A stretch of DNA of 64,000 bases from assembly GCA_050084515.1 (NCBI GenBank), contig CM114271.1:39742001-39806000 (forward strand). Reading direction: 5' to 3'. The translations under genes and the position numbers were made by a program. How positions within the stretch are numbered: position 1 is the stretch's first letter; every line of letters starts with the position of its first letter. The notes beneath the pieces were generated by a model. It saw only the letters and a list, made by a program, of their open reading frames with translations, was not told the DNA's origin and searched no databases. Shown here piece by piece: positions 4,244 to 33,324 of this stretch. This stretch comes from Blasia pusilla. Lineage: Eukaryota.

Positions 4244-4247
4244 GAGT

Positions 4248-4890
4248 TGTCTTGCGCATACACATCGCTACACAATATACATCGTTGTCACCGAACACAC
4301 ACACAAACACGCACGATCCCATGCTAACTCATGACATCCAAACAACGAGACAAGAAGTTCTAAAATATCTCCAATAAAGTAAGATCCAATCTCTCTCTAC
4401 ACAATCTCACACCATAGCTCTCAAAGGTGTGCACTCTCTCTCATGTCAAACCAAACCCACTCTCCTAATAAGAGGCTTGGATTACACTCACAAGGCAAGG
4501 GACCATAGCTCCGCCGCCTCATGCCAAGAGGTTCAACAAAGAGAGAATGAGCTCTAAAGCTCTCTCTCCTTGGGATATATATCCCTCCCCTCTTCCAAGC
4601 TCTCTGCATGGTAACCTATTCTCCCAAGTCACCTCCTTGGCTCTTGACCTAATGTAGGAGGTCAAGGGCCACTTACCAAAAATAGAAAGTTGATCATATA
4701 CTCAAAATGACAACTACCTAAAATAGTAAGTTCTTCAATATGGCTCCAAATGAGCCAAAACGAAGGGGAAACCTACTCTCTCATGTTTTTTCGGGGCTTC
4801 AGCAAGTCATCCTCAACCTCCTAGGCATGCCCTCCACTACTCTTGAAGACGCTCTACTAGATCTCACCGATCTATGCTAAAGGACGTGAA
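4248..4890 (-). repeat. Complete LTR copy (about 640 bp), left boundary of the 18-kb insertion
   Basis: Starts TG at 4248 after GAGT (4244-4247). 4248-4375 is repeated at 4894-5021 and 4494-4890 is repeated at 21826-22222, which ends CA and is followed by GAGT. TATATAT near 4576. Strand is inferred. Confidence 0.8.
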
Positions 4891-4893
4891 AGT

Positions 4894-5021
4894 TGTCGTG
4901 CGCATACACATCGCTATACAACATACATCACTGTCATCGAACACACACACAAACACGCACGATCCCATGCTAACTCATGGCATCCAAACAACGAGACAAG
5001 AACTACCAAAATATCTCCAAT
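4894..5021 (-). repeat. Partial LTR copy (matches 4248-4375)
   Basis: tgtcgtgcgcatacacatcgct...aaaatatctccaat matches 4248-4375, then similarity stops abruptly. Confidence 0.85.
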
Positions 5022-5195
5022 CGCCCTACTAGCTGGTGGTTAGGTCCCTCTAACTCCAGATAGCCATCTATCCCTAACTACCATGACATACATCTCTCAG
5101 ACGCTAAGAGCAAGAAGGCTGGGTGCTCATGTGGCCCCATCGTTAGTCGCCTTCCTATCATCCATGTCAGAGAAAAAGTCGGGATCGAAACCTAC

Positions 5196-6600
5196 CTAGT
5201 ATATCCTATATGTACATTTGGGACACATCCATCGTCCCTGAGGAATCCTAGTGAGAGGTGGCGTCATACATGCCATATGCCAACCTCTCGAACAACCATC
5301 ACAGACTAGCATCGTGGCCGCACCACGGGCAGAACCACACAACATACAACGCAAGCTTGCAGGAACTACTGCTAAGCTCGGATCCATTGTACCATCAACG
5401 TTAGGAAGGTGATATGGCGCACAATTACGCACATGGCCCTTCCATACCATACCATCGCATCCCTCCAGCAAGAGAACATCGGATGGCAAAACGTCATGCA
5501 CTCTCAGGATAGTGCGCCCTACAGTCACATCCAACGTCGTCGGTGCCGTCTGTTGCAAGTAGACATAATCTCCCTCATGAAACCTCCAGATAGTTGGTCG
5601 ATAACCACCACCCCGAATAGTCGCATACCTCAACGTATCTCGATGTTGCGCAATCGCCAAGTTCTCGAACGCCATAGGCGTCACTCTCCAAAACAACTCA
5701 GCCCTCTGAGAACATGCTCGCACCCATACATCTGGGTCATCAAGGTCCAGCACCTCACCAGCATCTTGACGAATGGCCGTAGGTAAATCTGGCTCTTGGC
5801 CATAAAGTAGCAAGTACGGTGAAAAAGACGCTAAGGATGCGTGCATGCTGAATCTGTATCCCATCGCCAACCATGGCAGCTGGAGGTCCCAATCTCCTAG
5901 GTGACCTCTTTGCAAGCCATACTTGCGTAAACCCCTCTTCATCATCTGTACAACTCTCTCCGCTAATCCATCCTCCTCGGGATGATCTCACAAAGTCGTG
6001 CGATGGTCAATGAGCGTCTGATCACACAAGGCCTGGAACTCACCGCAAAACTCGGTACCCTGGTCTGTCAACACCTCAGCCGGTGCGCCATAATGACTCA
6101 ACACTCTGTCAAAGAAGGCATAAGCTACTCCGTCACTCGCTTTGTCAGACAATGCAACCAACTCGATCCACTTCGAGAAGTGCTCGACCATCACCAACAC
6201 ATAACGACTGTGGGCAAAGGTCCTGCAAAATCCAAACTCCATCTATGCCCTAAGCCCATGATCGGTAATGGATGCAACTGTGGAGTCGAGGCCTTGAACG
6301 ATGCTTGGACCCGATCACACACCATGCACCTGGCAACAAACCGATGAACGTCACTCTGCATGCCTCGCCATCAATACTGAATCTAAAGCAAGTTGTATGT
6401 CCGCTTCACCCCAAAGTGACCCAACTCCTCATGGGCATGCTGCACTAGTCGTGCTCTCTCTGAAGGATGCAGCACTACTCGTACTCTGCCATCCTCCCAA
6501 ACCCTCAAAACATGTGTCCCCTTCCAACGGAACCGTCTGGCCCGCTGTAGGATCCGATCCCACTCTCTAGCATCCACGGTGCTCGCAACGCTGCCAGTAC
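5196..6600 (-). pseudogene. Gypsy integrase (zinc-binding region, rve core) with C-terminal PHD finger
   Basis: HAHEELGHFGVKRT, VLVMVEHFSKWIELVAL, VLTDQGTEF, WDLQLPWLAMGYR..SPYLLLYG; the ORF 5196-5945 ends in a C4HC3 motif. Internal stops present. Confidence 0.9.
5214..5348 (-). other. PHD finger (C4HC3) coding segment
   Basis: CMLC-x11-CDGC-x4-HMAC-x12-WMCPKC, including the conserved Trp before the last Cys pair. Confidence 0.92.
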
Positions 6601-6799
6601 GAAGGTACTCCAAGACTACTCCATCATCATGAATATCTCGGCCACTTTTCGTCTCCTCACTGGCCTCGGGATCCAAGGACTCTCCACTAGACCTCGCCAT
6701 CAAAGTCTCCACACTCTAGCTCTCCATAGCCAACATGCCTAAACAGGCTGATGCGTGCCATCCTGGCACCGACTCCTCATCACTCTCTCCATGCCATCG

Positions 6800-8153
6800 A
6801 GCTTCAGTCGCATCTCGCTCACTTGGGCATGGGTTACGACTCAACCCATCTGCATCCTGGTTGAGCGTCCCAGGACTATGTACCACCTGAAAATCATACT
6901 CCTGCAACAACAGAGCCCATCTCGCAAGCTTCTCTATAAGCTTGTCGAACTCCATCAACCACTTCAGTGGTTGATGATCAATGATGATGGTAAAGGGGTT
7001 GCCGAATAAGTAACACCTAAAATGCGTAACATCCCACACCGCAGCCAAGCACTCATCCTCATACGAGCTGTACTTTGCCTCTGCAGCGTTGTTTTAGCGA
7101 CTAGCGTAAGCCACCATGAACTATCTATCCTCATCATCTTGCTGGGTGAGCACCGCTCCAAGCCCCAACATGCTCCAATCTATGTGCAACTGGAAAGGAC
7201 GCCCTCTGATCGGTCTCTTCAAGATGGGCCCGGACTTCAACATGTCCTTGAGAAACTGAAATGCTCGCTCCTGCTCATCCCCCCAGTGCCACTCGTGATC
7301 CACCTTGGTGACAAAGGTAACCATAATCAAATGAATCTCTTGACGTATCGCCGATAGAAGTTCGCCAATCCCATGAATGCGTGAACACAGCTCACATCTG
7401 TAGGGCGAGGAATGCGTGAGATAGCCTCTACTTTTTTTTGCTGAACACCAAGGCCCCTTGGGTATATCGTATGACCCAAGTACTCAATCTGGTCGTAGAA
7501 GAACTTGCACTTGCCTGGATGTAGCTTCAGCCCATGTAATTGCAATCGTCGAAATACCTCCTCTAGATATCGCTCATGCTCCTCAATCGTGGCGCTAAAG
7601 ACTATGATGTCATCAATATAACACCTAGCAAAATCCAAACCAGCCAAGATCCTATCCATGACCCTTTGAAACTCAGCCAGGGCGTTCTTTAACCTAAATG
7701 GTAAGAACCTCCACTGGTACAAACAATCCTTCCCGTGAGGATCGATGCCCCAAAATGACGTCTTCTGCTTGTCCTCCAATCTGATGGGCAGTTGATGGTA
7801 TCCGGCTTGCAAATCCAATGAATCGAAAACCTTTGCGTGACCAATCGCATCAAAGATCTCCTCAGGGGTGGGCATGGCATACCTATCGGACTTCGTCTGC
7901 TGATTGATAGATCGGTAATCCCCAAACATCCGCCTATCCGTCTAGTTGCCATGCACATCCTTCTTGGCGGGCATGATAGTGGCCGATGCATACTCCCCAT
8001 GCGACATCTTCACTAGTCCTCCTCCAACCAAGTCCTGGCTCCTACTCTGAATTAGATCCCTCTCCATATCACTGTACCTGTAGGGTCGTCGGAAGATCGG
8101 CGTATCACTCGACAACTCAATGCAGATACCCCTTCCCTTCAGCGTACCCAAAT
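6800..8153 (-). pseudogene. Reverse transcriptase and RNase H of the DNMT-Gypsy element
   Basis: PIFRRPYRYS, GDYRSINQQTKSDRYAMP, SLDLQAGYHQ, RCYIDDIIVFS, LKLHPGKCKF; RNase H FQLHIDWSMLGLGAVL, FTIIIDHQPLKWL, ARWALLLQEYDF. Confidence 0.92.
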
Positions 8154-9148
8154 TGTTGCGCCCCTACTCTCCTTGAACGTCAATCTTTAGTGTTGCGGAA
8201 GCGTGCGTTCAGTAGGTCACGAACTCATCGCCGATCTGCACCCAAACACGCACTCTCGTTAGTCGGGTTTGGCCAACCGGCGTTCCAACCCACCGAGTCC
8301 TCAACTCGGCGTCTCATCAAGCTCAACCTTCCTTAGTTCCTAGCTTCCAACACATGGCAAGTCCTTCAAGACTTGGAACAGACTTCCTGGTTAGTCCAGG
8401 GATCTGAAACGGCACTTGCACGCCTAGCGATCCCAAGTGTTCAACGGCCCTTGTGTGAGTTCCGAACCGAGACCCAAGTAATTGAGTCGCGGTGTGAAAT
8501 CCAAGAGGGATGTCTAAAATCGCCTCAATGGACTTGGTGCAGGTTTTCCAACCCAACGCCCAAACTCGCGTTCCGTTCCATGCCCTTGAGCGCCACGCGC
8601 CCAAAGTGAGGTTTGGGTTCCAAGCACTCGGAGACCTTCCCCTTACTAGTACTTATGGGGTTCTCCAATAACCCCTCCCCTTTGGGAATAGAGGTTCGGG
8701 CCCTTCATTGTGGCCCTCAACCCGACTCCACTTACAATCTTTTTCGGGTCGTATCTCGGTCGCTGCTTATGCGTTTGCAGCGATCTGTGGTGCGATTGGA
8801 CCGGATCTCAATAAGCTTTCCAACGCACCCTTATTTGCTCCAAACGCATCTTGGCGCTAAAAGTTATGGCCATAAATACAGTCGGAAACTCTCAAACGCA
8901 AGTGGCGTTCCAAATCCGGATCTTTCCTTTGGCAACCCACTTCCTAGACTCGACTTCTTTCAAGTCTCATTCCGCGTTTGGTCCAGGTTTCTGAGTCGCG
9001 ACCATCACATCTGAAACGCAACTTCTCGCTCGCGTCTCGTCTCTTGTCTCCTCTTTGAGACAACTCCAACGCGCAAACCATCTTAGCGTGAGCCCGCTAA
9101 TGTTCCGATGTTCCGCTTGGCACTTGTTTGGTCATGAGGGTCGCGACA
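8154..9148 (-). repeat. 3' LTR of nested chromovirus
   Basis: Direct repeat of 14437-15432; adjacent polypurine tract AAAAAGAGGGGTGAG on the minus strand (9149-9163). Confidence 0.95.
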
Positions 9149-12100
9149 CTCACCCCTCTTTTTAGAGCTTGATGCCCTCATCAACGGAAACTTTTATTAT
9201 GTCAAGTCTCCTGGGCAGCCTACCCCTTGACATTGAATTGCGTTCTGGTGGCTAACCCGCAATTCCTCTTAGTCTCTAGTTGTCGCTTTGCCCCACTTAG
9301 AATTATTAGCCTCTCATCTTCGATAAGCCTGGACTAGTTCCAAGGAACTAACCTATCAAATAAGCTAACTAAGTGTGCAACCTTAGACTCTTTCGACTCA
9401 TTATTGTAAACATCACACCTGTTTACCTGGTCCACAAATCGTACTACTATTGGGTCGCTCTCGTATTTGACTTAGGCGCGTCACTCAGTTTACTTATGTG
9501 GCCACAAGTAAGATCACCCCAAGCCCCAAGACAGACTTCATCTCCCCTTGCCGACGCTAGGGCGAGCCCGAGTGTAATCCAACACAAGGTCTGTTCTAGG
9601 TGCTTATCCACATACGAGCTCTCACCTCAAATACTCCTTGTCCGTCCCTCTTGTCGTACATTCTAAGTCTATGATGAACGACTCATAGCCATGCACTACC
9701 ACATACAAATTGCAATCAACACGGTATCGAATCTCCAAATCCATACACTCCTTTATTGCAACACTAGCATATTCTAATTCTGCCTTCGCCCAAGATTCCA
9801 CGGTTACAAGTCATGTCTCTAGCTTCTCCTCGTACTAACGTATGTGCTTCGCTTGTGTTCGCTTGAAGTCACGCGACAACTCTTGCGCGTGTTCCAAATC
9901 CGCCTCCAATCCAAGTCGCCTCCTTCACATGGTAGCCCTTCCATTTGACCAAGTATTCATACTTGTTGGCCCGACGCCTCGAATGTAAGATGGTCTCCAC
10001 CGAACTCCGGGTCTTCATTTACAATGACCGGGTGCGGTCTCACCACTGTCTCGCTCGAAACGTCCATTATCTTGAAGGTATTTCTTCAACAATGACACAT
10101 GAAAGGTCGGGTGAATCTTGAACTCGTCCGGAGCCTCAACGTATACACATCCTCAAACGGGTTTGCCACAATCACATACGGTCCAACATACTTGGCAGAC
10201 GACCATTTTGCAGACAACTCTTTCGGAAGAGTGAGATTCTTCACACTCAACCACACTTGTTCTCCAACTTGGAACACTTGGCGCCGACTCTTATTAGCAT
10301 GCTTAACGTACCTCATTTGAGCCTTTGCAAGACTTAGCCTCGCGCTCTCTTTCGTTTCGCATCTCTACCAACAAACTTTTGCCGCCGCTTGTCGTGTTCG
10401 TGCCAATGTAGTACCCTTCGAAGGGCTAGATCAAGAGGCCCTTCGGCTCGTCCATTTGCCAGGAGAAACGGAGATTAGTTGCGAGAATGCTTGGTCGAGT
10501 TGTAGCGATATTCGCCATGCTCACCACGACCCAATCGCGTTGATCAAAGATCGACATAATTCCTCAATCTTGATTCACGATAGAGTTTACCTTTGTCTGT
10601 CCATCCGTCGTGGGTGGAAAGCCGTCATCAAACTCAGCTTGGTCTTAAACCTTCGAACAAGTGCTTCGAAAGCATCGGTAAACTTTGATCCCGATCTCGA
10701 AACAATGCTCCCGGCAAACCATGAGCACGCCACCGCCTATCGAGGAATAGTTGCGCCGTCAGATACGCCCCGTGCGGAATCCACCGTCGGCACGAATCTC
10801 GCCAACTTGCTAAACCGATCAACAATCACAAGTATAGCGTTGTAGCCCCCAGATTCCGGAAGACTCGTGATGAAATCCATACTCACACTTTGCAAGGGTC
10901 CTTCGGGGATCGGCAAGGGATGCAAACAAGCCCATTTCTTATCATAAGAGACTCTATTCGCTTGGCGAGTCACACTGGTCTTCACATATTAAGCAACATC
11001 CTCCTTCATGTTGGGCCAAAAGAACCGTTTCGATGAAGAGCTAAGCGAGATTTCTCTCCTTTATGTCCCGCCAAGGGCCCGTCGTGACATTCCGCTAACA
11101 CCTTGGTTCGCATTCTGCCTTGCCCTACATAGATCCTACTCTGTTTGAACCTTAGTAAACCGTGCCTCAAACTTATGTTGGCCACCTTCTCACCCTGCTT
11201 CAACTTCCTCAGGTATTCCCCTGCTTGAGCATCCTTCATATATCCTTCACGAATCCTTCTCTCCAGATCTGTTTCCTTAGGGAACATTGCTCTCAAGACA
11301 GTGTGTCTTCGATGGCATGTGTTCCTCCTTGCGACTTAACGATCTGGAATCACATGATCTTTACCTGGCTTGTGGATCAACTCTACATCCATCAGCGCCA
11401 AGGTATCATGCCACCGCAGATTGTTTGGTGTCACTCGATCTTGGGTCTCAAAATACTTGAGTGATATATTATCGGTGAATACTCGAGTCTGTGGAGCCCT
11501 AGATAATGCCGCCACTTCCTCAAGCAATGTACCACCGCGAACAACTCTTTTCGTGAGTAGGCCATCTCCTTTCGATTGTCGCTAAGCTTCTTGCTCTCAT
11601 ATGCCACCGGTCTCCTTCTTGCACCAACATTCCGCAATCGCGAAATCACTAGCATCGGTATGCACTTCGAACCGTTTGTCAAACTCCGGGAGCTTTAACA
11701 CTGGTTCCTGCGATAGAATCTGCTTCACTCGATTGAATGCCTCATTAACTTCCTGGGTCCAAGTCGTGTGGCAAACTTTTCTATCCAATCCGTGAGAGGT
11801 CTCACAATCCCCGAATTTTTTTTCACATAAGTACGATAAAATTGCACCGCACCTACGAACCTCCTCATCCCCTTTACACTGGATGGGGGTTCCCACTCGG
11901 AAATCGCCTTTACCTTTTCCATGTCTGGACTGACGCCATCTGCACTGACCACATGACCCAAGAATTTGATCTTACTCAAACCAAATTCGCTCTTCTCTAC
12001 ATTCGCATACAGCTGATTTGCCCTTAGCTTAGACAAGACCGCTCTCACATGTCGAACGTGCTCCTCTAGTAACTTCAAATAGATAAGTATGTCATCGATA

Positions 12101-14421
12101 TAGATGATAACATACTCATCCATTTCCTTGTGAAAAATGGAGTTCATCAATGTGGTGAACGTCGGAGGTGCGTTACATAGACCGAAAGGCATCACTACAA
12201 ACTCAAAGGAACCGTATCTCGTCCTGCACGCAATCTTCTCCACATCTGCCTCGGCAATCCGAATCTGGTAATATCCGACTTCAAGTCAATCCCTACTGAA
12301 ATATCTCGCGCTTTGCCGACCCTATCAAAGAGATCATCTATCCTCGAAGCGGATAATTGTTCGAACCGTCACTTTGTTGAGGTGCACGGTAATCAACACA
12401 CTGACCTCATCTTTCCATCCTTCTTCTTTACAAAGAGAACAGGTGCTCCATAAGGTGACTTGCTAGTCCTAATGTAACCCTTTTCCAAGAGCTCACTTAA
12501 TCGCTTTTCAACTCAAGAAGTTCCTCCTGATTCAACCTATATGGTGCTTTTGAAGGCGGTTGGGAACCGGTATGATCTCTATCTTATGATCTACGGCTCT
12601 ATGCGGCGGCAATTCGGTCGGAAGCTCATTTGTCAAGACATCCTCAAACTCCTTGACCACTTCGGAGTGGTTCAGGATTCCCTTTGAAGCGGTGTCCCGA
12701 TCTCTGCGATATCGCTTGTAGCCTCCTCCACTTGTCTCATCAAGCGAGAAATCCATCCTCCAACTCGTCATGCTCCTCCTTGTGATCGAGTTCACCAACT
12801 CCATCTTCGCTGGAACCTCACGGACCAACCGCACTTTTGTAACCGTTTGCCTTTTAGCAAGACGCTCAACCTCAATGGTCGGCGTCTTAACTCCACCTCA
12901 TCATACGCATCTAGGAATGTATTCCCAAAACTCCGTCAATGCCGTCCATTTCGCATAAAGTGAAATTCTCCTTCAACTCGAATACCCGATCCCATGTCAA
13001 TCCCAAGACCAAATCGAAGTCCGATGAGACTTGCCTCCTGCAAATCCCACTCGAATGGGCTGCCAAATCGCTTTAGAGGTAGACGACCCGAGTTCCTTCA
13101 CGATTCTTGGGCTTAGGAAGGAAGCACTGTATCACGAGCAACAACACATCGCGATCAACAATCTTGGATCTTAGGTACACCAAACTATCGTCCTCTTGGT
13201 GACTTGAAGGGACGTCTCGAGATCCGCCACAGATGCTTAGCAGCAAACGCAATCATACTCCCATTACTAACCTTCGGTTTCGAACACCCTTTCGACAGGT
13301 GCCCCGGTTCGCCACAGTTGTAGCATACGACCTTGCCGTTTCCTGTCTTTGAGTGTTGTCCTCCTTTCGGCTTTGCATTGTTCCAATGACGACTCTCTCG
13401 TTAAATCCGCCCCCACTCCAGCCTCTTTTGAACGCCTCCTTATTTTTCGACTTCTTCGAAAAAACTTTTGACTCGAAGGGTTTCTGGGTTTGGACCTCAT
13501 CGTCCCCAATCCGCTCCGCTAGCTTCAGAAGGTCGCGCAGGTCTCTGGCAACGTCGGCATTCGGTAAAGGCCTTCTTCGCTCGGCTTGAGTCCATTAATG
13601 AAGATAGCCTTCTTCGCGTGCTCATCCATCTTCGGACTAGAAGTCAATTTCGCACTAAACTCCCTCACATACACGCTTAAGGAACCACTCTGCTGCATCC
13701 GCGACGCATTCCACCGTGTCACGCAACCCTTGGTACTCGGAGTGAACCGATCCCCAATCAACTCCTTGAACTCCTCCCAACTCGAGAGGTGACTCGCCGC
13801 CCAGATATTCCTCTCGTTGAGCGGTCCACCATTGTAGAGCATGATCCTTCAGAAAGTAACGGCTACCGTCACCTTGTTACGCTTTCGGCAGACCCCCTCT
13901 GCGCCTCGGCAAATCTGATTCGGCCGTAAGGAAATCCTTCACTTTTGCGAGCGCGCCACTCCGATAAATGGCGTGGCGGTTCGTCTTGCAGAGCCTTTTG
14001 CACGCTTTTCGGTTTCGAGTGGCCTCTAACTCGCAATCCGCTTGCTTTTTCGGGACATCTTCTCCACCAACACCTTCAACAAGTCCAACGCCTGGCTCGA
14101 CTCCGTCCTTTCCCGAAGTTTGGGCCCACTGGCCCCGCGGAAGGAGTCGCCATGGGGCGTCCTCACGATCGGGCGTTGCTCTTCGAGTCTCCGTCTCCTC
14201 TATAGCTTCACGGTCCGGCATTGGTTCCTCTCTCGGTTCACGCCGCTTGATTCGGTGCTTCTTGGGTTGTTCTCCCTCGATCGCCATCTCCAAGCCAACT
14301 CACTCAGATCTCCTCCTCGTTTCTTGCGTCCCTCCTCGAGCGTCCGAGTCTAGCTGCTACCTTGAAATTTCCCAAGCATCCGGCTGATCCCACGACCCCA
14401 AGTTCTCGCTCACCAAGGATA

Positions 14422-14434
14422 AGCTCTGATACCA
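14422..14434 (-). promoter_or_regulatory. Primer binding site (tRNA-iMet type)
   Basis: TGGTATCAGAGCT on the minus strand, 2 nt inside the 5' LTR. Confidence 0.9.
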
Positions 14435-14436
14435 CT

Positions 14437-15432
14437 TGTCGCGCCCCTACTCTCCTTGAACGTCAATCTTTAGTGTTGCGGAAGCGTGCGTTGATGGGTC
14501 ACGAACTCATCGCCGACCGCACCCAAACACGCACTCGTTAGTCGGGTTTGGCCAACGGCGTCCAACCCACCGAGTCCTCAACTCGGCGTCTCATCAAGCT
14601 CAACCTTCCTTAGTTCCTAGCTTCCAACACATGGCAAGTCCTTCAAGACTTGGAACAGACTTCCTGGTTAGTCCAGGGATCTGAAACGGCACTTGCACGC
14701 CTAGCGATCCCAAGTGTTCAACGGCCCTTGTGTGAGTTCCGAACCGAGACCCAAGTAATTGAGTCGCGGTGTGAAATCCAAGAGGGATGTCTAAAATCGC
14801 CTCAATGGACTTGGTGCAGGTTTTCCAACCCAACGCCCAAACTCGCGTTCCGTTCCATGCCCTTGAGCCGCCCCGCGGCGCCCAAAGTGAGGTTTGGGTT
14901 CCAAGCACTCTCGGAGACCTTCCCCCTTACTAGTACTTATGGGGTTCTCCAATAACCCCTCCCCTTTGGGAATAGAGGTTCGGGCCCTTCATTGTGGCCC
15001 TCAACCCGACTCCACTTACAATCTTTTTCGGGTCGTATCTCGGTCGCTGCTTATGCGTTTGCAGCGATCTGTGGTGCGATTGGACCGGATCTCAATAAGC
15101 TTTCCAACGCACCCTTATTTGCTCCAAACGCATCTTGGCGCTAAAAGTTATGGCCATAAATACAGTCGGAAACTCTCAAACGCAAGTGGCGTTCCAAATC
15201 CGGATCTTTCCTTTGGCAACCCACTTCCTAGACTCGACTTCTTTCAAGTCTCATTCCGCGTTTGGTCCAGGTTTCTGAGTCGCGACCATCACATCTGAAA
15301 CGCAACTTCTCGCTCGCGTCTCGTCTCTTGTCTCCTCTTTGAGACAACTCCAACGCGCAAACCATCTTAGCGTGAGCCCGCTAATGTTCCGATGTTCCGC
15401 TTGGCACTTGTTTGGTCATGAGGGTCGCGACA
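14437..15432 (-). repeat. 5' LTR of nested chromovirus
   Basis: Direct repeat of 8154-9148, TG..CA termini, followed by the PBS. Confidence 0.95.
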
Positions 15433-15879
15433 CAAATCCTCCATGCTAAACGCAAAGCAGCTCCTATAACTCTGATGTATTCGGCGCTGCTCTCCTCTTG
15501 TCAACTTAGGGCCCATATCTCTGGCTCCCAAGTCTCCATCGTGACTACGGTAGGACTCTCCGGTGCGGGTATCGGTGGTTGCTATGGTGCAACCCCGTCT
15601 CGAACAACAACACTTGGCCGCTCTCCGCAAGCCAACTGCAAATTGTGATCTCCACCACTTGCAGTGCCCGAAACCACACTCGATGTTGTGGCTATCATCT
15701 CCTTGCATACGTGCAAAACATCCCAAGAAGTTCAAGGGTGTCTCTTGCGATCTCCCCTGGTGTGTAGATCTCCTCGGGTCTCGCCCCCAACCACTGCCTC
15801 CACTGTCTCGATAGGCATGAGGCTCATCAACGCAACCGCTGTGATCTGTCGCAATCCCATACGACGCTGCTCAGCCACT

Positions 15880-16800
15880 CCCAAGTTGAGGATCCATGTC
15901 AAGCAGTTCAGGTCCATCGCCTGACCCAAGACATGGCGTCGTGATGCCTCTGACACTGATGGTACTGCCATCATTCATGTGGGAAATCCCATCGCTCGCT
16001 CTCTCTCTTCGGTGTTGGGCTCCACCAACCGTTGAACTTGGTCATCCCAAACTAAGCCAGGACCGGCCTCCTTGTATGTATAGGAAGTGGGAAAACTTTG
16101 CCTATTGTGTTGACCACAGTCAACGGTGGTCGATCATTGTGCCTCATTGCCTGTGATCGACGACCTGGATCTATAATGGAATCCACTAACAAATGGGAGG
16201 GGCGGTCCACTCTAGCATATGCCCTCCATAACACCGCATGGGGCACCAAGTTGGTCCACCATAGACGCGATCGATGGGCTCTAGAACCTACACTCGCCGC
16301 ATCCAAGAACACTGCTGGGCCGATCTAGGCACGCACCTGATGAGCACTCGTCACCACTCGTGACCTGGTGTCTCCTAAGATCGGCACATTCTACATAATG
16401 TAGGCTGGATAACGAGACTGGTGCTCCTGCAACTGCCGTAACCTCAACATCTCCCAAAATAACCTGTACCGAGTGTCAGTCAACCCCTTGCCTCGTCCAG
16501 CACTTGATTGGCCCTGACATGGCCAACGGTGACCAAATCAATGGTCCCTACCCGCTCTAAGTCTTGCGCCCCCAACAACGAAATATCCCTCGGTAGGGAA
16601 CTCTCGTACCCCTATACTGTGGACGCAGACAATAAGTCAGGAAAACTTAGGCATAACTGCGCCACATGTCGTAGTGAGACGCGCCTCGCAACATCATCTT
16701 TCTCCACATACAGGTACTCCTGTACTCGCACTCTTGCCTGCAAAACAGCAGCTAGCCGGTGTTAATCCCTCCAAAGAGATCTAACACTCGAATACCCTCC
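15880..16800 (-). pseudogene. C5-cytosine DNA methyltransferase catalytic domain (DNMT3-like) within retrotransposon Pol
   Basis: Manual translation across frameshifts: I IRVLDLFGGINTG; II YLYVEKDDVA; III LPRDIS; IV IDLVT..WPCQGQSSAGRGKGLTDTRYRLFWEMLR; VI YIM*NV (ENV); VIII LDAASVGSRAHRSRLWWTN; IX EERERAMGFP; X RRHVLGQAMD. All in canonical order. Confidence 0.92.
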
Positions 16801-17179
16801 TCCGGGGTACACCACACAATGGGTGTGGTATCCAAGAGTGTCATTGTAGCACTCCCTGCTACCTCAGGTTCCTCAGACCCGTCATGCTCCGGTGCAAACG
16901 CCTCGCTCCATGCGCTCTGCAAGTGCTCATCTGCCAATCGTTGAAGCTCCTCAGTCGAGCCCCACAACGGCACCTCTCCTCCATGGAATGATGCAACTAC
17001 CATAACACTCCTCTCCATAGAAATGTCAGGAACGGGAGTATCCTCTGCATGGACATGTCCCTCGATCAAATCACTAGGCCAAGTGATGGCACTACTAAAT
17101 GCTGCTAAGGTTGCCATCTCTCCTGGCCGTTGCTCGATCACTACACGTGTGAATTGAACGGGTAATGAGCTAAGGCGCC

Positions 17180-17525
17180 CATCACCTGACTGCAATCCTG
17201 GTCTGTAGGACCCTGACTCCTCCCAGTAATCCATGGAAAACCCCATCGGGTATAACACTGCTCCACCAACCAAGACGTCGTAGGACTCTGCATCAGTCAC
17301 TATCGCCTTGGTGCGCACCACGGACTCATCTATAGGATGTCTCGGGCGAATCCTCACCACAACCTCCTGTCGGGTGATATACTGTGTGGTACTCGCTCCA
17401 TCCAAGGATGTGTGTATCCGGAATGGACAACGCTCCACATCGGCTCTCATCAAGCCCAATCCTCTGAATGACGCTTTCCCCAACATCAAGGGTTGCGCTC
17501 CTGAATCCAACAAGACGCGCTACGG
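17180..17525 (-). pseudogene. Retroviral-type aspartic protease
   Basis: VLLDSGAQPLMLG catalytic DSG motif and downstream YDVLVGGAVL, in the same ORF (16752-17513) that runs into MTase motif I. Confidence 0.85.
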
Positions 17526-18075
17526 ACTAAAAGCTCTTCCTCTAGGACTAACCAACAGGAAGACCTCTCCTCGATTATCCAACAACACAACACCATGAGA
17601 AGCCATGGCACGCTCTATTGCGGGTCTAGCGGGCATCTCCGCCATCCTAGCAGCCATAGCCTGCCATGAATTTGACGTGGATGGCCCGAGCATCCGCTCC
17701 GAGGGCAGGTCCATCACCTCCTCTGCAATCACCTTTGCACGTGATGCACGAACTCCAACTCCGCGCTCACATAGTGAAGCGGCCAGCCAAAAAGCCTCGA
17801 CGAGCGTACCCCCCAACGTCATAACATTGGAAGCAGAAAATAAAGGAGTGCGGTACACAACGGTGGCCGCCCCCAACAACGTGCTCGACACATGCCCCTC
17901 CTGAGCATCAACAATAGGAGTCGTCGCACTTGCTTCTCCCATCGCCCTCCGTGCTCTGCACACCAACAACATTACCAACTCTCCAGGAACTTTGATGAGG
18001 ACCCATTGATGGGGTCCTCATCGCTTCGGACAACGTGAAAGACTGAGGAAGCCTAGTCTATTTTCTAGCTTCCCC

Positions 18076-19700
18076 TCACTGTGGATCCAACTCTGCGGCT
18101 GCTCCACGCGTCACAACTGCGGCGGCCTCCATCTGGGCAACCCCGCACATCCAACCAGGATCCTCCAGATCTCTGGTTGCTCCATATGATGTCGATGCCA
18201 CAGATCCGGCATCGGGTAACCTCAATGCCATAGCGGCAATCTCCTCCTGTAGTTGCTGTATTTGAGTAGCCATCCTAGCCTCACGTCCGGCGTCTCCCTC
18301 GGCGCGTCTAGATGGTGGTACTCTACCTCCTCCATGGGCAGCTCCACCACCCTGTCAGGAAACTCCAGCTCCTCGTCCCCCAACGGGACCACCTGGTGCA
18401 CAATCTCTAGCCCACCCGGACCGGCTACTCGCTCTGGTGCCCTCTCTGGCCCTCGGTCCGGACGTAACTCAGGATGTAAACTGAAACACCTAGCGCGTGT
18501 ATGACCATACCTCTGACAATAGTCACACTGATAACCTCTTGGTGCAGCACCATCTCCTCCTCCATGCTGAGACACGCGTCCATGACCCTGACGAGTGCAA
18601 TGGCGTTGATGATGGGCTCCACCACAAGACCAACAAGTAATAGTAGGCGGTTGTTGTTGAGCCGCATATGAAGGCGCAAGTCTCTGTGCCACGGGCTCCC
18701 GCTATCCTCCCTGAGCTCGTGGTACCACAATTGACATATCTCGGAGTCCACGTTGCTGTATAGGTGGCGCAGCCAATCGCAACTGCTCTCGCCCAGAACC
18801 CATGGTGGCTACGCTATCCTCCGCCATATTGTGCTCAATGTTCTTGGCGGTCCTAAAAACATCTCTCAACGTCGGGGAGGTGTTCATAAGAAGCACCCCC
18901 TCCCGCACCCGTGGCCATAGGGTGTGGTCCAGCATTGCGTACCATGATTGGATAGCCTGAGCCTCTGTCATCCCCTGAGTGACGTTGATCAACCATCGCA
19001 AGCGAGTGTAAGCCTCACGTAAACTCTCACCCGGGCGCCTCTGGAAGTTGTGGATGCTCCGCAACTTCTATGTCCGTACCCCCTGGTAGCTCGCCCTCAA
19101 CTCAGCAAAGAACTCAACCACGGGGTTGAACTTGGGACGAACCCGACTAGACGGTGCAACTGCTCTAGTGCGAGTGACCCCTCCTAAAACATCACTAGTG
19201 GAAGAGGAAGTAGCCTCTCCTGACTCCTCCTCCTCATCTAGGAACGGCTCCGCCCATGACACATAGTGTGGGTCGTAGTAGAGTCGTCATGCTTCAATCT
19301 CCTTGACATATATGTGGGGAAACTCATGGTAATCGTCCATGGGTGCCCCCTCTAAATGTTGGAACATCTTTGTTCCATCATGTCAGAACGGGTTGAACTC
19401 TCTAGAAGAGTCGCACCAACTCCTAAACTCTGCTATGAAATCGTGCAACTCAATCGTACCCTCTTTGACGTGAAAACCCTCGTGGTCCTCTACCCAGTGG
19501 CCGTCCATCTTGTGCCCAACTGGTAGGACCACTCACAATGTGTGGCGATGTGCTCGAAACTCCTCTACACCCTCCCCTTGTCCGACGATGACACGAAGGA
19601 GGTCGAGGTGGTCCTGAAGTGAAGACCCTCGGAACCTCACACCACTCCGCGTAAAACCTCTAGAGCTACTCTCGGGTTCACCACCTGCCTCTCAAAGTCC
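18076..19700 (-). pseudogene. Gag remnant with two zinc knuckles
   Basis: FQRRPGESLREAYTRL (retrotransposon gag motif), CWSCGGAHHQRHC and CDYCQRYGHTRARC; broken by stops. Start uncertain. Confidence 0.8.
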
Positions 19701-19701
19701 C

Positions 19702-19740
19702 GAACAGACGCCGTGATGACCCTCGTCACGGCGTCTGTTC
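19702..19740. repeat. Perfect 15-bp inverted repeat (hairpin)
   Basis: gaacagacgccgtga-tgaccctcg-tcacggcgtctgttc. Confidence 0.9.
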
Positions 19741-21048
19741 ATAACCCTTCTCACCCAATCACTCTTGCCTCGCGAGTAATCCCTCAATCATTCATCCCAA
19801 ACATGCGACACTCGATCTACACTCTACCTCCCCGAGACATGTAACGTGCGGCAATAAGCGGCGTGGTGGGGCAAATCAACCAAGCTATCATTTCATCGAT
19901 AACCTACCCTCAACTCTGGATATCCCACACAGGTCTATGTCCCCTAAAGCACATATATAAATGATTCTCTCAGCATCCACACACCCAGTATCCCCAAATA
20001 AACTACCCAAATCCCAGAATCCCTCACACGTGTAGGGTAAAGGACCATAATGGGTAACGTGAACACATGTCAATGTCGCTCCCCAGCAATTTCAAATCTC
20101 GACCCCAACTCGGTCGTGGAGACAACTCCTCCAATCAGCAAGTCATACTCCTCCCGTACTGACGTTGCTCAAAACTCCTCGATAGACGATACGGTTCCAA
20201 CGGAACGGTACGGCGTTGCAGGCGGCATAGAACGGCTACGAACGGCACGGCCCTCGATGATGGGATGCGGCACTCGGCGGCATACCCTCCTCAATCAAAA
20301 ATAAACCCACACTCTGCTCCATAATGCCTGAGCAGATCCACGATTGAGATGGTGCGGTGTGGCCACGAGTGGCACGGTGCGGCAATCAGCGGCGTTGCGG
20401 CTACGGGCGTCACGACACGGTACCCGATCGTCGTTGAGCGGCTACCAATCACAACATAGCAGCATGAAATCAAAACTCAAACACTATAACATGAGGTCAT
20501 ATGCCATCACAAGTTGATGATGGTGGCGGCCAAAATAAAGTACGTGATGGCGACGCAAGTCCAAAAATTAACGAACGTTGTGGAAGACCCTCCACTCCGT
20601 AACGGCGACAATGGCAACCAAGGATGGACAACGGACGGTGGACCATTGACGATGACGGTTGACCGTTGATGGTGACGGTCGAATGGTGACGGTGACGATT
20701 GGTCATTGACGGAGACTATGACGGTGACGGCCGCCGCCGGTGTGGCGGCTGGTTTAGGGTTTGCATATTTTAACCCTAAAAATCGCCTAGCAATGGCAAT
20801 TTTTCAAGATTGACCATAACTTTTTGCTCGCAACTTTGAATTGCGCATTGTTTGTTGCACAACCTGCACAACTTCACGATCTACGCCAGTATCAAAAAAA
20901 AATTAGAATTGGACATTCCAGTAAAAATTGACAGGGATTGTTGTAAAGCCCAATGTCTCTTTCTCCTACACAAAATTCGGCAGCGCTTCCGCGCTGATTC
21001 CTCCCAACAAAAATGTAAAACCTATAAAAATGAAGATAAGAAATCGGG

Positions 21049-21827
21049 CTTATTGGCCATAGGGCTTCAAGCTGACTTTTTCCTTGAGTTTTTAGGAAAG
21101 ACGTGTAGCATCGAGTGTAAAGAATATCTTCAAAAGTGTATGAGGCTCATGTGTATACAACGAATTGCTTAACTCTAATCTTTGATCTCCCGACTGCAGA
21201 AGGAGATAGAATGGCTTTTGGATCTCAATTCAAAGACCTCCAACTCTTTGGATGGTGATGTTGTTCTTATTATCTCTAATTCGACTGTGGATCGGGTGTG
21301 GCTATTCATTAGACTTAATTGGTCCTTGGTAGGCTGTTATTCCAAAAGGAAATCAAGCTTTCTAAAATATCTATGGTTCAGGAATTTTGTAAATCCAGCC
21401 CGGGAGTGTATGACTAGTTGTCTTCATACCCTTTTGTCCGTATGGAGAGATGTACCCAATGGATCCTGATATCTGCATTTGGAATACATTTTATATTGTT
21501 TATAAAGTGAAGTGCTAGGATTTTGTTGGTTAGTGTGACAAATGCATTCTTCACACGTTTCTTCCCTTTGATCGATCACACTAAAATGGTACTGTTAACA
21601 CAGATCATGAGGACCTCTCCAACCATATTAATTCTCGGTTTACAGTAAATATATCCTGGCAGAGCTGGGTTTGGAAATAGGGAAACCTTCATGAGCTAGG
21701 CTAATCTTTTGCTAGGTGTGCCACTGGATTATCCAACCACTATGGATGGATTGAAGCCCAGGGGCTGTGAACGTAACATCCTTGCACTGAAGTACGGGGG
21801 GAACTCCCGAAAATGAATGCCAGATGG
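21049..21827 (+). pseudogene. Duplicated fragment of the TPK locus (most of last intron, last exon, 3' region)
   Basis: Aligns by eye to 41620-42412 in the same orientation, from cttattggccataggg to gccagatgg; the exon copy is frameshifted. Confidence 0.92.
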
Positions 21828-22222
21828 CAAGGGATCATAGCTCCGCCGCCTCATGCCAAGAGGTTCAACAAAGAGAGAATGAGCTCTCAAGCTATCTCTC
21901 CTTGGGATATATACCCCTCCCCTCTCCCAAGCTCTCTCCATGGTAACCTATTCTCCCAAGTCACCTCATTGGCTCTTTACCTAATGTAGGAGGTCAAAGG
22001 CCACTTACCAAAAATAGAAAGTTGATCATATACTGAACATGGTAGTTACCTAAAATAGTAAGTTTCTCAATATGGCTCCAAATGAGCCAAAACGAAGGGG
22101 AAACCTCCTCTCTCATGTTTTTCGGGGTCGGAACATGTCATCCTTGACCTCCTAGGCATGTCCTCCACTACTCTTGAAGACGCTCCACTAGATCTCACCG
22201 ATCTATCCTAAAGGACGTGACA
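21826..22222 (-). repeat. Partial LTR copy (matches 4494-4890), right boundary of the 18-kb insertion
   Basis: ggcaagggatcatagctccgccgcc...aaggacgtgaca, ends CA, followed by GAGT (22223-22226). Confidence 0.9.
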
Positions 22223-23504
22223 GAGTTCATCTTCAACGTGTGTTTGTTGTGCTAAGATTTCCTTGCGACGGGCTCACCTTCTTTTGTTATGCATTCGCAT
22301 GCATCAATTTACTAAAGCCAGGAAAATCCGTAGGATTTGATGGAAGAGGAAGTATGTACAACAATTAAGTTGATTGCATGAGAAAAATATATTCTCGAAA
22401 TAATGGTATGTAAGGCATCACCGTTGAAATGGAAATAAGATGCTTACTTCCCTACCCTATACAAAGGTGATTACATGGGGGAGGTGTTCTTCAATACTTC
22501 AATATGTCTTCCCGAACTTTGTTATGAAATTGGCATATTTCTAATAACATCAAGTGGCCGTCTCTCCATGTTTCGTGATGATCTGCCAACACTCACCATC
22601 TACATGACACACCACGAAAGTATTAATTAAACTTGAGAATTGGAATAAAGTGATGAAAAGAATAAAGAATAAAAAGAAAAGAAAAGAAAAAAGAGAGGAA
22701 AGAAGAGAAGGGAAATTAGTAGGGGCAATTTTTCATTTCCAATTTTATTTCCTGAAAAAAAAATGAATAGAAAAAAATAGAGAGAGAATTAAATTTCTAT
22801 AAAAAAGATAGAGAGAGAGGGAAAGAAAAGAATTTAGGGAAGAAGAGTAAATGGGAAGTTTTTAATTTTTAATTTTTATTTCTCTAAAAAATTTAAATAA
22901 AATGGAAAAATAGGGATAAATTTTAAGTGAGAAGAGGAAAAATCCTAAAAAAACGTATGCGGGAACAAATTAGAAAAAAAATTGATGGGAAGAGGGAGAA
23001 TAAATTGGGAAAAAGGTTAAAAAGGGAGAAAATGACTTTAAAAAAATCTTTGTAAGGAAATTAATAAAACGACCAGATTCGATAGCCCAAACATAGCCCT
23101 AACCTAGCCCTCCCAACCCTATGCCCGAACGTAGCCCCTGCACCCTAATGGCGTCGCCTCTGAATCGAAGGGTCAGATATAAATCACCCTCCCATATATC
23201 TAATGGCCAAACATAGTAGGTCGTTAAATAGCTAATATGACGGCTCAGGGTCTGAGCCGCTAGATTGCTCCCCCTCCCCCCATCGTTCCCACCCTCTCCC
23301 TCACTTCCTCGCTCATTCCCCGATCTTTTCGCGCAGTGCTTGTACTGCCTTGATGCGCCCTGCCCCCCAAGTTCGTGCGTTGGGATTGTCTCCGCATGCA
23401 CGCTGGAGCGCCACGATCATCACGGTGCGACCCGAGCGCCTGGACCATCACATTGCATCATGATGCGACCCGCCGGGACTGTCTATTCTACTCTCTTGCC
23501 GGAT

Positions 23505-29800: not shown

Positions 29801-32800
29801 TCAATAGCGTCGACAGCGAGATTCGATCCCCGCCCACCTGAGCTGAAGCCAGTGATCCGACCTTACTGACGTAGGCCTACTAGATGTTTGGAGACAGGGG
29901 GCTTTCAAATTTTATTTATGAAATTTTTTTTTCCGTGCCCAGATCTTTTTCTCTTACAAATCTCATAATCTTTTTTTTTAGATGAGCGTTATGAAATTAC
30001 AATTACATTTTTCTTACTTGAAATCTGCTCCTGGTGGTCCCTCTTTTTTTTTACTGGAATTATCTAATTATATTGAAATTTTAATATGTTCTTTTTAAAT
30101 TTGCAGTGAATAATATTGTATATGCGGAGTGAGGCTAACTAGCTTACGCCATGTCAACTGTCTCATCAACATGCAAGAGGCGTATAATTGTGGAAGAAAT
30201 TGTAATAAATAGGAGTCCCGAATATTTGGTAGAGAGAGATGAACATAGATTTTCATTATCTCGCTCAACAACGCAAACTAAAAATTGTTTGATGTGGACC
30301 CTACATTTTTTGCTCCTATTTCAAATGGTTTCAATGAGACTGAGGACGTTAGAGAAGTCTCAATAGGCGAGGAAATTGTGATTACTCTCAATAGTAATGA
30401 GAGATACTCTGTAGATATTTGTCCCGGTCTTGAAGATCTTGAAGATGGAGAATATTCCTCCACTTCCCTCTATGATTCTGAGGGATGGTATGTTGGTGAT
30501 GAGTTCGACCTCGAATATAGGTGTATGGATTATGGGGATTTAGACATAAGTGCAGATAGTCGAGATATTGGAGATAAGTAGCCTATAGAGTACTATCTAT
30601 CGTGTATATCCAATTAATCATCAAATCCATGTTGGTTTTGTTCTTAGAAGTCTGTTTGAGATTGTTGAGTTGAGCAAACGATCAAGTTTCATTTCTTTGG
30701 GAGTGGTGTTACTCAAAAAAGTAAGTCTTCTCTGCTTGTGTTCTAATATTCAGGTGTGGAGATTTAGTATCCTTTTATATTGGGTATTTCTTTCATTATT
30801 TTGATATATTTCTTTTATTTTAATAATTGTGTGGATAATGCAGGATACTTTATAAATGAGTGGTGACGAATTACGCTATAGCGATGGTGAGTTCTACGTT
30901 CCTCTTGATGAACAATAAAGGGATTATACACCTATAGATGTTGACGTCATAGAGGTGATACAAATAGCAAGTCCGGAGTATGTCCCCTCGCCGATCGTTG
31001 AAAATAGGAATTATGCTTCAAGTTCTGGCTATGTTCCATCGCCGATTTTTGAAAATATGGATAAGGCTTTAAGTCCTAGCTATGTACCATTTCCTATTTG
31101 CGAAAATGGGATTAATGGTCCTAATGTTAGCATAAGCCCTTTGAGAAATGGTCAGAGTTGTAGTTATGATGAGAGTGCATCTAGGATTTTAACCACACCT
31201 CGGGTGAATCATCATTCTATTTCACAAGAAGTAGTTGGAGGTCAGGAGGGAGAAGGAGATACAGATTCCACACATGATTGCATCCCTTCATCAGACCCTA
31301 TAGCATCTAGCCATTCTTTTGTACGTGATTGTTACGGGTCGGGGTCATGGGAAATTAGTGATTGTCATTCAATTTTCTCTGAGGACTCAAGTGAGATGAG
31401 TACGGCGGAGTCTCATTGCCCGTTAGAATGATTTTCCTATTTCAGATTTTTATAAAAACTTCAGTTATGTGTAAATTTATTTTTTAATATAGATTATAAT
31501 ATTCAGAGACCAAATCTTGAGTATAAGTTTTTTGTACAAATTGTTCTCTTTTTTCTATTATTTATATATATATTGACAATATATATTTTGGTCGGATGGT
31601 TGATATTATCATAAGATGCATGAATCTCAAGAGGAACCATCGAGGCGAAATGAAAAAAGACCATTCGCAGACATCACCAATGTAGTCTCTTTACCTAATG
31701 TGGAACATGATCACCACATTTCATGTAGTGCTCCATCTTCTATACGGATTTCGGAGGAAACAGAGAAGGTTGCATATAAGAAGGTTAGAAGGGTTGCTTC
31801 TCAAAGAAACAGAAGGGCGCTTCATGATATGCGATTTGTAACTCCTTCAACGACTTTGTCATCTCCAATGTAAGGATACTTAGCATTATGATTATAGAAT
31901 GATATCGTAACCTTATGTGCACACTCTAGATTTGTTGTGTGACTTTAATATCTTTCATGTTTGTGATGTAGACTTCCAAATCCATCGAACCCGAAACGAT
32001 TACGTGATATACATCAAATTGTGAGAGCCCAAGGACAAAAGCCAAGACATGCTAAATTAGTTGAATTGAGATCTATTGAAACTGTTGTGAATATTCCATT
32101 GATGGAAGAATTACAACCACCCATCATCAATGGCCCACTAGACGCAAATACTATCAGGTATTTATTTATGTATAACATTTCTACTTTTTATTATAATAAT
32201 TTTTATTTTATTTTTCGTGTTATGACTTTTTTTTATTCTTTGTTCAGGTTGGTAGCAACACCTTCCAATCGAAATCTTCATGCTTTAATAGACTCTACAT
32301 CGTCTCCAATGTACGTTTCATCCACTCATTAATTTCTTTCTTTTTATTGGTTTTTTTTAATTTAATTTTTTTGACTTTATTTTTTTTTATTTTTTTTTCT
32401 CAGTCTTCCACTTCCGTCCAACCCTCGGGGATTACATGCTATGCTTCAAGTTGCACGAGCACAAGGCCAGAGAATAAGGCACCATAATTTGGCCCAAGCG
32501 AATGTTCATCAATTGTTGTGAATCTTCTTCCTAGAGAGGAAGTTGAGGCTATGACTACTAATGACTTTCATACTCAAGCTAATACAAGGTATGCTTTACA
32601 TACTTTTATTATTGATGCTTCTTACTTGGTCTTAAATTTTTATAAATGATTTCTAATGTCAAATTTTTTGCAGGCCAATTATGGTACATCATGAAGTTGA
32701 AGCTATTCCAAACTTTGGGATTGTGGTCTTTCCATGTCCAATGTATATTTCTAAACTATATATTCAAATTTAATAGAGATATGTTTGTATGTATATTTAT

Positions 32801-32923
32801 TCTTATTATAATCATATATATTAATTTCTTAACCTCTGCTTGCAATCTTCCAATTCCTGCCAATCCTCTACGATTATCTCACATGCTTCAAGTTGCTCGA
32901 GCTGAGGGCCAAAGAAGAAGACA

Positions 32924-33196: not shown

Positions 33197-33324
33197 TAGA
33201 AGGGTTGTGAACTTGAAAAATTTGCTCAATATTGCACGTATTCCTAACTTTGAAGAGAAGCACATTCGAATTCTTAGGTTGGGAGATCGTATTGATAGTA
33301 TTTTGGCCGTTTTAGTGTTGGACT

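Follow-up and report, generated by a model that had tools for sequence, protein, structure and literature searches.

The DNA analysed here is a stretch of 64 000 nucleotides from Blasia pusilla (GenBank assembly GCA_050084515.1, contig CM114271.1, positions 39742001 to 39806000), referred to below as the window. At 15880–16800 its minus strand carries a C5 cytosine DNA methyltransferase (DNMT) domain that resembles DNMT3. Very probably, this domain is part of Pol in a decayed Ty3/Gypsy-type retrotransposon of the kind called Gypsy-DNMT3, the intact members of the family being DNMT3-like and selected and the copy in the window being dead.

The domain was read on the minus strand and aligned by tblastn with the intact relative P0002. 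The motifs were found in unpermuted order: DLFGGINTG (motif I), YVEKDD (II), DISLLG (III), WPCQGQS..GKGL.D.R..LFWEM (IV–V), a stop followed by NV (VI), SRAHRSRLWWTN (VIII), EERERAMGFP (IX) and RRHVLGQAMD (X). Every motif listed in the original prediction, which had been made from the letters of the window, was confirmed by this reading and alignment. The piece bearing motif IV alone exceeded the PF00145 cut-off (23.9 bits for a cut-off of 22, E = 3.3e-5; the second window score was 23.7 bits). Intact relatives scored 35–51 bits against the same profile, and the window stretch was 48–65% identical to intact proteins over about 700 residues. Because the PF00145 cut-off was passed and because of this identity to intact proteins, the motif set is far beyond chance.

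Frame changes were located from the tblastn pieces at about 16755, at 16522–16525 and at 16097–16118, and four in-frame stops by alignment (TAG at 16612–16614, TAG at 16391–16393, TAG at 16325–16327 and TGA at 15975–15977). They correspond to the frameshifts near 16755, 16527 and 16100 and to the four stops that had been predicted. The motif IV Cys is present in the window copy, and TAG 16391–16393 occupies the codon of the ENV Glu (motif VI). Since this Glu codon is a stop, the window copy is not functional; it is dead and makes no enzyme. Further breaks were found in the protease and the integrase, a fifth stop lies near 17520, just upstream of the protease DSG motif, and the copy received two later insertions.

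The element occupies 4248–22222. On the minus strand, the order is gag, protease, DNMT, reverse transcriptase (RT), RNase H, integrase (IN) and PHD finger. The features, with the open reading frames (ORFs) on which Pfam domains were detected, are as follows.

4244–4247, no strand: left target-site duplication GAGT, identical to the bases at 22223–22226
4248–4375, minus strand: repeat B2, 3′ terminus of the element, with the minus-strand end ...GACA; 92% identical to B1
4376–4889, minus strand: repeat A2; 4494–4889 matches A1 (92.5% identity to 21826–22220), and the continuation 4376–4493 was judged from reads of sister copies
4891–5021, minus strand: repeat B1, joined to A2 via two bases, as if the two ends of the element had been joined
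5214–5348, minus strand: PHD finger at the C-terminus of the integrase region (PF00628, E = 1.5e-11, on ORF 5196–5987)
5349–6664, minus strand: integrase region with a frame change near 6209 (tblastn with P0054, P0059, P0125 and P0111)
6503–7279, minus strand: RNase H region (PF17917 and PF17919 on ORFs 6716–7093 and 7121–7483; tblastn with P0005)
7312–8153, minus strand: RT (PF00078, E = 2.7e-26, on ORF 7327–7941; tblastn match at 8157–7312)
8154–15432, minus strand: nested, younger Gypsy element with long terminal repeats (LTRs) and without DNMT, between DNMT and RT
15880–16800, minus strand: DNMT3-like C5 cytosine methyltransferase domain, motifs I–X (motif reading, tblastn and Pfam)
17250–17560, minus strand: aspartic protease region (LLDSGAQ; alignment with P0002)
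18222–19460, minus strand: gag with two CCHC-type zinc knuckles (tblastn of P0006 residues 19–370 onto 19460–18462; CX2CX4HX4C strings in ORF 18222–18701)
21049–21827, no strand: foreign insertion cutting A1, a 780-bp repeat with a 91% identical copy at 41620–42412
21826–22222, minus strand: repeat A1, 5′ terminus of the element, TGTCAC... on the minus strand
22223–22226, no strand: right target-site duplication GAGT (sequence reading)

In tblastn, Marchantia polyproteins were collinear with the minus strand from gag through to RNase H, on both sides of the nested insertion. RT was 65–76% identical to the Marchantia proteins P0005 and P0008. The integrase match in tblastn spans 6664–5109, and the relatives used as queries carry Integrase_H2C2 and rve. 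The protease part of P0002 stayed below the Asp_protease_2 threshold (20 bits for a cut-off of 24.3); PF13650 is present in the precomputed Pfam lists of the relatives P0019 and P0029. In intact relatives, DNMT is part of a single polyprotein frame, in agreement with the prediction of an intronless domain. The predicted lack of PWWP and ADD domains stood for the neighbours of the domain, Pfam having detected none on the relatives; it fell short as a description of the whole protein, since the same polyprotein ends in a PHD finger. This finger follows the integrase in every long relative checked with Pfam, whatever the domain order. Its nearest solved structures are those of PHF12, CHD4, KDM5 (PHD1), KAT6A, ATXR5, PHF21A and AIRE. 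Of PHF12, CHD4, KDM5 PHD1, PHF21A, AIRE and ATXR5, most are readers of the unmodified H3 tail.

On the minus strand, the repeats are arranged as A1 (22222–21826), coding region, B1 (5021–4891), A2 (4889–4376) and B2 (4375–4248). The termini are TGTC...GACA and the 4-bp GAGT duplication is perfect. A1 and A2 of the window copy diverge by 7.5%. The consensus of the loose ends of sister-copy reads at 21826 continues into sequence like that of 4493–4470. A simple LTR pair (4494–4889 and 21826–22220) was considered and was dropped for A-coding-B-A-B once B1 and B2, the termini and the duplication had been identified. The same arrangement, with B1, A2 and B2 abutting, was present in five of the 17 longer related loci examined (L035, L042, L046, L054 and L076). 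Four of these five were aligned at their ends: the termini were TGTCATG... and ...GACA, and the 4-bp duplications were perfect in three of the four. In the window and in all five loci, the inner B–A junction resembles the two termini joined via two bases. All the features of a Ty3/Gypsy element were found, namely the order gag, protease, RT, RNase H and IN, a DDE integrase, TG..CA ends and a short target duplication; its terminal repeats depart from a simple LTR pair.

The affinity of the domain was analysed using profile and structure searches. When P0002 alone was compared with the Protein Data Bank (PDB), DNMT3A was the best match (E = 3.6e-11), followed by DNMT3C, DNMT3B, tobacco DRM, HaeIII and Arabidopsis DRM2. 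A profile of 22 members gave 83.4 bits for DNMT3A, 79 for DNMT3C and 78 for DNMT3B. The methylases of the phages Epa40 and arall reached 68.6 and 52.1 bits on this profile, tobacco DRM 47, AtDRM2 38, and HaeIII, HhaI and DNMT2 about 32–34. None of the DNMT1, CMT, DIM-2 or DNMT5 chains was found at E ≤ 1 in the profile search of the PDB. P0010 was modelled with AlphaFold from 78 aligned sequences (mean pLDDT 85.7). In Foldseek, the first 48 ranks listed for this model were all DNMT3A, DNMT3B or DNMT3C, with a TM to target of 0.77–0.84 for catalytic-domain chains. The model was also compared with 48161 chains using VIA-align. Z was 28.1 for DNMT3B (2.6 Å over 279 of 291 residues) and 26.9 for DNMT3A; it was 25.1 for M.MpeI, 23.0 for M.HhaI, 20–21 for DNMT2, 19.1 for DNMT5, 15.9 for DNMT1, 15.8 for ZMET2, 14.5 for MET1 and 9.0 for DRM2. 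On the profile scores and the predicted fold, the DNMT3-like nature of the domain, as first proposed, is well supported. The DNMT3 motifs AHRARYFWGN, EMERVFGFP and RQRLLGRSW that had been cited for comparison are all visible in the PDB alignment with DNMT3A. The domain had also been described as unpermuted, unlike that of DRM; the order of motifs I–X was read directly and DRM aligned half-shifted, as described below. Descent from a host DNMT3 is favoured, by similarity ranking and predicted fold rather than by a tree.

Conservation was determined on 78 diverse members. The ENV Glu was invariant, and the Cys and Gln of PCQ and the residues of A-H-R-x-R-x-x-W-x-N were conserved at 90% or more. 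For the analysis of selection, the best 80 of 197 confirmed metagenome loci (432 pattern matches) were retained, codons were mapped onto P0010 and non-synonymous and synonymous changes were counted according to Nei and Gojobori. The frame was open over at least 90% of the match in only six of the 48 loci checked; most copies are dead like that of the window. Among 36 close loci (627 pairs), the median ratio of non-synonymous to synonymous divergence (dN/dS) was 0.85 for dS below 0.02, 0.58 for dS of 0.1–0.2, 0.49 for dS of 0.2–0.4 and 0.17 for dS of 0.8–3 (35 pairs). A fall of this kind with depth would be expected under constraint on active lineages and drift of inserted copies. Between the window and metagenome loci, the proportions of non-synonymous (pN) and synonymous (pS) differences were 0.22–0.26 and 0.74–0.82 over about 320 codons; pN and pS were 0.034 and 0.221 for L039 and L038, and 0.056 and 0.154 for L042 and L046. 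These codon comparisons indicate that the DNMT domain of the family is kept by purifying selection. The check suggested along with the original prediction, on the catalytic Cys and Glu and on dN/dS among copies, came out in favour of a catalytic domain retained in the family: both residues are kept in the 78 members, and dN/dS is 0.17 at deep splits and near 1 only in young copies.

Relatives were searched at three levels. P0001, the window's own fragment with two stops read through as X, retrieved seven relatives among 483 candidates, including Marchantia proteins with RVT_1, RNase H and DNA_methylase. The search with the P0002 domain gave 67 relatives among 8000 candidates: many from Marchantia, others from Calypogeia, Sphagnum and Closterium, and many metagenome proteins. 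Finally, the 22-member profile was run exhaustively against 1.84 billion representatives (clusters), with 16483 matches at E ≤ 1e-3, of which 3004 reached E ≤ 1e-10 and 592 reached E ≤ 1e-30. Family members made up all of the best 150 among these matches (E ≤ 7.5e-84), and many were polyproteins of 1000–3456 residues. One of ten clusters looked up bears an organism name, 'pol [Scenedesmus sp. PABB004]'. No Klebsormidium sequence was found by name among the relatives returned by these family searches. As to origin, a captured host cDNA or an older mobile clade had been envisaged; the polyproteins of the relatives and the profile search argue for the old mobile clade over a recent capture of host cDNA.

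The domain order was determined in 231 proteins with DNMT. DNMT was alone in 106; the order was RT-DNMT-IN in 65, DNMT-IN in 29, RT-DNMT in 17, DNMT-RT in 12 and DNMT-RT-IN in two. The commoner order in the wider family is therefore not that of the window element: RT-RNaseH-DNMT-integrase-PHD accounts for 111 of the 125 proteins with a second domain, including the Scenedesmus 'pol'. Both orders end in integrase and PHD, as seen by Pfam on examples. A tree was built with FastTree from 203 domain rows, each covering at least 250 of 336 residues (342 profile columns), and was rooted at midpoint; the window copy was included with its stops as X. All nine rows with DNMT before RT fell in one clade of 65 leaves (support 0.997), and the 110 rows in which DNMT follows RT or precedes integrase all lay outside it. 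Marchantia, Calypogeia and four unnamed proteins shared an 11-leaf clade (support 1.0) with the window copy, which suggests a liverwort-like host, although kinship between transposons does not identify the host.

Three further proteins were noted during these searches. P0025, annotated as 'DNA cytosine methyltransferase [Candidatus Obscuribacterales bacterium]', comes from a 2410-bp contig of an NCBI metagenome-assembled genome and adjoins the eukaryotic retroelement L039 in the tree; here, transposon DNA of a eukaryote was probably binned with a bacterial genome. P0244 (Logan, 2112 aa) has a Copia-type RT domain (PF07727) and matches the DNMT profile at 74–100 bits, showing that Copia elements with a DNMT occur as well as Gypsy ones. 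A word-based search for outgroups returned 14 long proteins, including P0244 and the dinoflagellate DNMT P0245, and none of the 14 was a canonical DNMT3.

Three runs of raw RNA reads and one set of DNA contigs from the same organism were mapped to 15434–22300 at a likeness of at least 90%. The numbers of RNA reads mapped were 1525, 1418 and 1767 per run; 1329, 1179 and 1513 of them were 90–95% alike to the window, and 10, 12 and 16 were at least 99% alike. First mates on the plus strand outnumbered those on the minus strand about tenfold, which in a library of the usual stranded type corresponds to RNA of the minus strand, here the sense strand. Sister copies diverged by 5–10% are therefore transcribed through gag, protease and DNMT, and the window copy is at most faintly represented. 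At two stop positions in the rows listed, nearly all reads differ from the letter of the window, which is an observation about the copies only. The number of DNA contig pieces mapped was 13646, and the family is therefore abundant in the source organism. Over the same interval, 199 places with C or G in the DNA contigs read T or A in the window; the opposite exchange was counted at 43 places. In the 27 such T/A-for-C/G sites listed, nine were in CG, ten in CHG and eight in CHH context. The asymmetry looks like the deamination decay of a methylated dead copy.

Several observations weigh against the reading of the family as selected descendants of DNMT3, and they bear on the alternatives. On the affinity of the domain, Z of the bacterial M.MpeI is only 3 below that of DNMT3B, the best phage methylase is at 68.6 bits for 83.4 with DNMT3A, 215 phage records match P0010, and phage clusters score as high as the streptophyte cluster in the Atlas feature search (0.96). 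Motif IV of the family is PCQ, as in bacteria, and not PCN as in DNMT3A. The Epa40 methylase (268 aa) has the strings LFDGIS, GGSPCQG, ENV, R.RLYWTN and IGNGW in common with the family and DNMT3A, and membership of the DNMT3 clade is drawn from similarity ranking together with trees published for a different species. These data would fit a module derived from a prokaryotic or phage DNMT3-like C5-methylase and not from a host DNMT3 gene, that is, a cousin of eukaryotic DNMT3. DNMT3A, DNMT3B and DNMT3C are nevertheless still the top matches by profile (83, 78 and 79 bits), in the Foldseek ranks listed and in VIA Z (28.1 for DNMT3B and 26.9 for DNMT3A), and the trees published in PMC5890265 and in a 2026 preprint (bioRxiv 10.64898/2026.05.21.726589) put streptophyte Gypsy DNMTs in the Dnmt3 clade. 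A phage or prokaryotic origin is thus considered unlikely.

On selection, L003 and L008 gave a pN of 0.051 and a pS of 0.054: young copies are near a ratio of 1, as expected for dead copies, and selection is visible only over deeper splits. The codon alignments were built from tblastn pieces, which biases them slightly toward conserved residues. In addition, according to PMC5890265, expression of the Klebsormidium domain in yeast gave no methylation, an assay that its authors judged inconclusive. The domain could then be a non-catalytic structural module, or act on the RNA of the element like DNMT2, whose structures align at the Z of 20–21 given above. A dead fold agrees poorly with the conservation of the catalytic Cys, the ENV Glu and the motif VIII arginines at 90–100% in the 78 members, and an RNA target with the fact that DNMT3-type DNA methylases are closest by every measure (profile, Foldseek and VIA); we regard either possibility as quite improbable. 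It is hardly credible that the domain is a decayed host DNMT3 paralogue or processed pseudogene lying beside transposon debris. It is indeed intronless, broken and in a transposon-rich region, but gag and protease lie upstream of it, and RT, RNase H, integrase and PHD downstream, all of them collinear with it and in its orientation, within one pair of termini and one target duplication. Moreover, in intact relatives one long frame encodes DNMT together with RT and integrase, and thousands of related DNA pieces are present in the same organism. The domain is thus best read as the DNMT part of Pol in a Gypsy-DNMT3 element.

Elements of this kind have been described. KnitGypsy-Dnmt3 of Klebsormidium nitens has Dnmt3-related intronless domains in a Gypsy Pol, with conserved key residues and Ka/Ks below 0.2 (de Mendoza et al., 2018, PMC5890265). 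According to the legend of its Fig. 4c, the 'A-coding region-B-A-B' structure known for DIRS elements is that of the Klebsormidium Gypsy element too. The window element resembles KnitGypsy-Dnmt3 as described there by its unpermuted intronless domain in a Gypsy Pol, its family's catalytic residues and purifying selection, and A-coding-B-A-B. It differs in that its nearest named relatives are liverwort elements (Marchantia and Calypogeia), Marchantia occurring 0 times in the main text of PMC5890265. In the passages of PMC5890265 consulted, KnitGypsy-Dnmt3 is described with neither a PHD finger nor a 4-bp duplication nor two domain orders. The kind is therefore already published as Gypsy-DNMT3, and the window element adds a member to it from a new host group, assigned by description and not by direct sequence comparison with Klebsormidium. 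Transposon-borne DNMT3 of streptophytes is also treated by Sarre et al. (2025) and in the 2026 preprint cited above. Literature searches on the gene names of the Marchantia members gave no paper, those on retrotransposons with a DNMT in liverworts or Marchantia gave general papers only, and no description of these elements in bryophytes was found, although the supplements of PMC5890265 or PMC12344493 may show bryophyte members.

The domain shares with animal DNMT3A, DNMT3B and DNMT3C (PDB 6w89, 6u8p, 8tci and others) the strings LF.GI..G, ENV, AHR.R..W.N, E.ER..GF and R..LG in the same order. It differs from them by an identity of only about 20–23%, by PCQ instead of PCN, by the lack of adjoining PWWP and ADD and by its place in a retrotransposon polyprotein. 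Part of the DNMT3s are without companion domains, according to Sarre et al. (2025), and the presence of PWWP or ADD may not define the DNMT3 clade outside animals. Plant DRM (PDB 4onj and 7l4c), which is related to DNMT3, aligns over motifs I–V with the 47 and 38 bits given above; unlike the family, only the C-terminal half of DRM aligns with the N-terminal half of the family domain (query 120–247 with chain 224–350), as expected for a permutation. SymbioDIRS-Dnmt3 and SymbioLINE-Dnmt of Symbiodinium are likewise retrotransposon-borne DNMTs, and the DIRS form shares A-coding-B-A-B, as far as they are described in PMC5890265; these elements use a tyrosine recombinase or LINE machinery, whereas the present family has a DDE integrase, with H2C2 and rve in the relatives, TG..CA ends and a target duplication. 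As in chromoviruses and PHD-bearing retrotransposons, the integrase ends in a histone-reader domain (PMC6673714). Unlike in chromoviruses, the reader is a PHD finger and not a chromodomain, and it is combined with DNMT. PHD fingers in retrotransposons were already known, according to PMC6673714 and bioRxiv 10.1101/2021.11.30.470311.

A possible mode of action can be proposed for intact members. DNMT would be made as part of Pol and freed by the protease of the element. The freed enzyme might then methylate cytosines in newly made cDNA of the element or in DNA around the integration site; self-methylation of cDNA has been proposed for the DIRS type in PMC5890265. The PHD finger linked to the integrase would bind histone H3 tails, tether the integrase to chromatin and steer integration. 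Candidate gains for the element would be to hide as 'self', to settle in silent chromatin or to limit its own copy number. We tentatively extend this to a broader picture, which is possible but doubtful when all its parts are taken together: bryophytes and green plants would carry a large, ancient and transcribed Gypsy lineage that pairs a selected DNMT3-like writer with a PHD reader of the unmodified-H3-tail type, amounting to a DNMT3-style module. With it, an element could mark its own new copies or their surroundings, enzymes of transposable elements would add to de novo methylation in land plants, and the protease-DNMT-RT clade would have arisen once from the RNaseH-DNMT-integrase order.

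Retrotransposons carrying the class of enzyme with which their hosts silence them have been a published curiosity of Klebsormidium and Symbiodinium. The streptophyte kind is not limited to one alga: many members were found in liverworts, peat mosses, a desmid and a chlorophyte. What a transposon gains from having a DNMT of its own could be studied conveniently in genetically tractable bryophytes such as Marchantia. As for the copy in the window, it is an ordinary dead insertion.

The two later insertions were characterized separately. Over 21159–21616, within the foreign insertion that cuts A1, neither family DNA contigs nor sense RNA were mapped; only RNA reads of the opposite direction were present. 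The nested Gypsy element has LTRs at 8153–9149 and 14436–15433 that are 98.2% identical, TG..CA ends, a 5-bp target duplication CAAAT at 8149–8153 and 15433–15437, and RVT_1 on ORF 11725–12285. A second young Gypsy element without DNMT was found at 50456–57854. It is 76% alike to the nested element, and the LTRs of each are about 98% identical. The observed/expected CpG ratio was 0.70–0.80 in the DNMT element and 1.02 in the two young elements; the lower ratio marks an old insertion that was probably methylated.

Host genes were sought with Pfam in ten further ORFs of the window, and only Helitron and PIF1 domains were detected. They belong to the remains of a Helitron at 30919–38309 on the plus strand, with Helitron_like_N on ORF 33972–34595 and the PIF1 helicase and its 2B domain on ORFs 36947–37414 and 37863–38309. 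A minus-strand ORF of 382 residues without a Pfam match (42775–43923) is situated in the GC-richer region at 42–46 kb, where the GC skew is negative as in the DNMT element.

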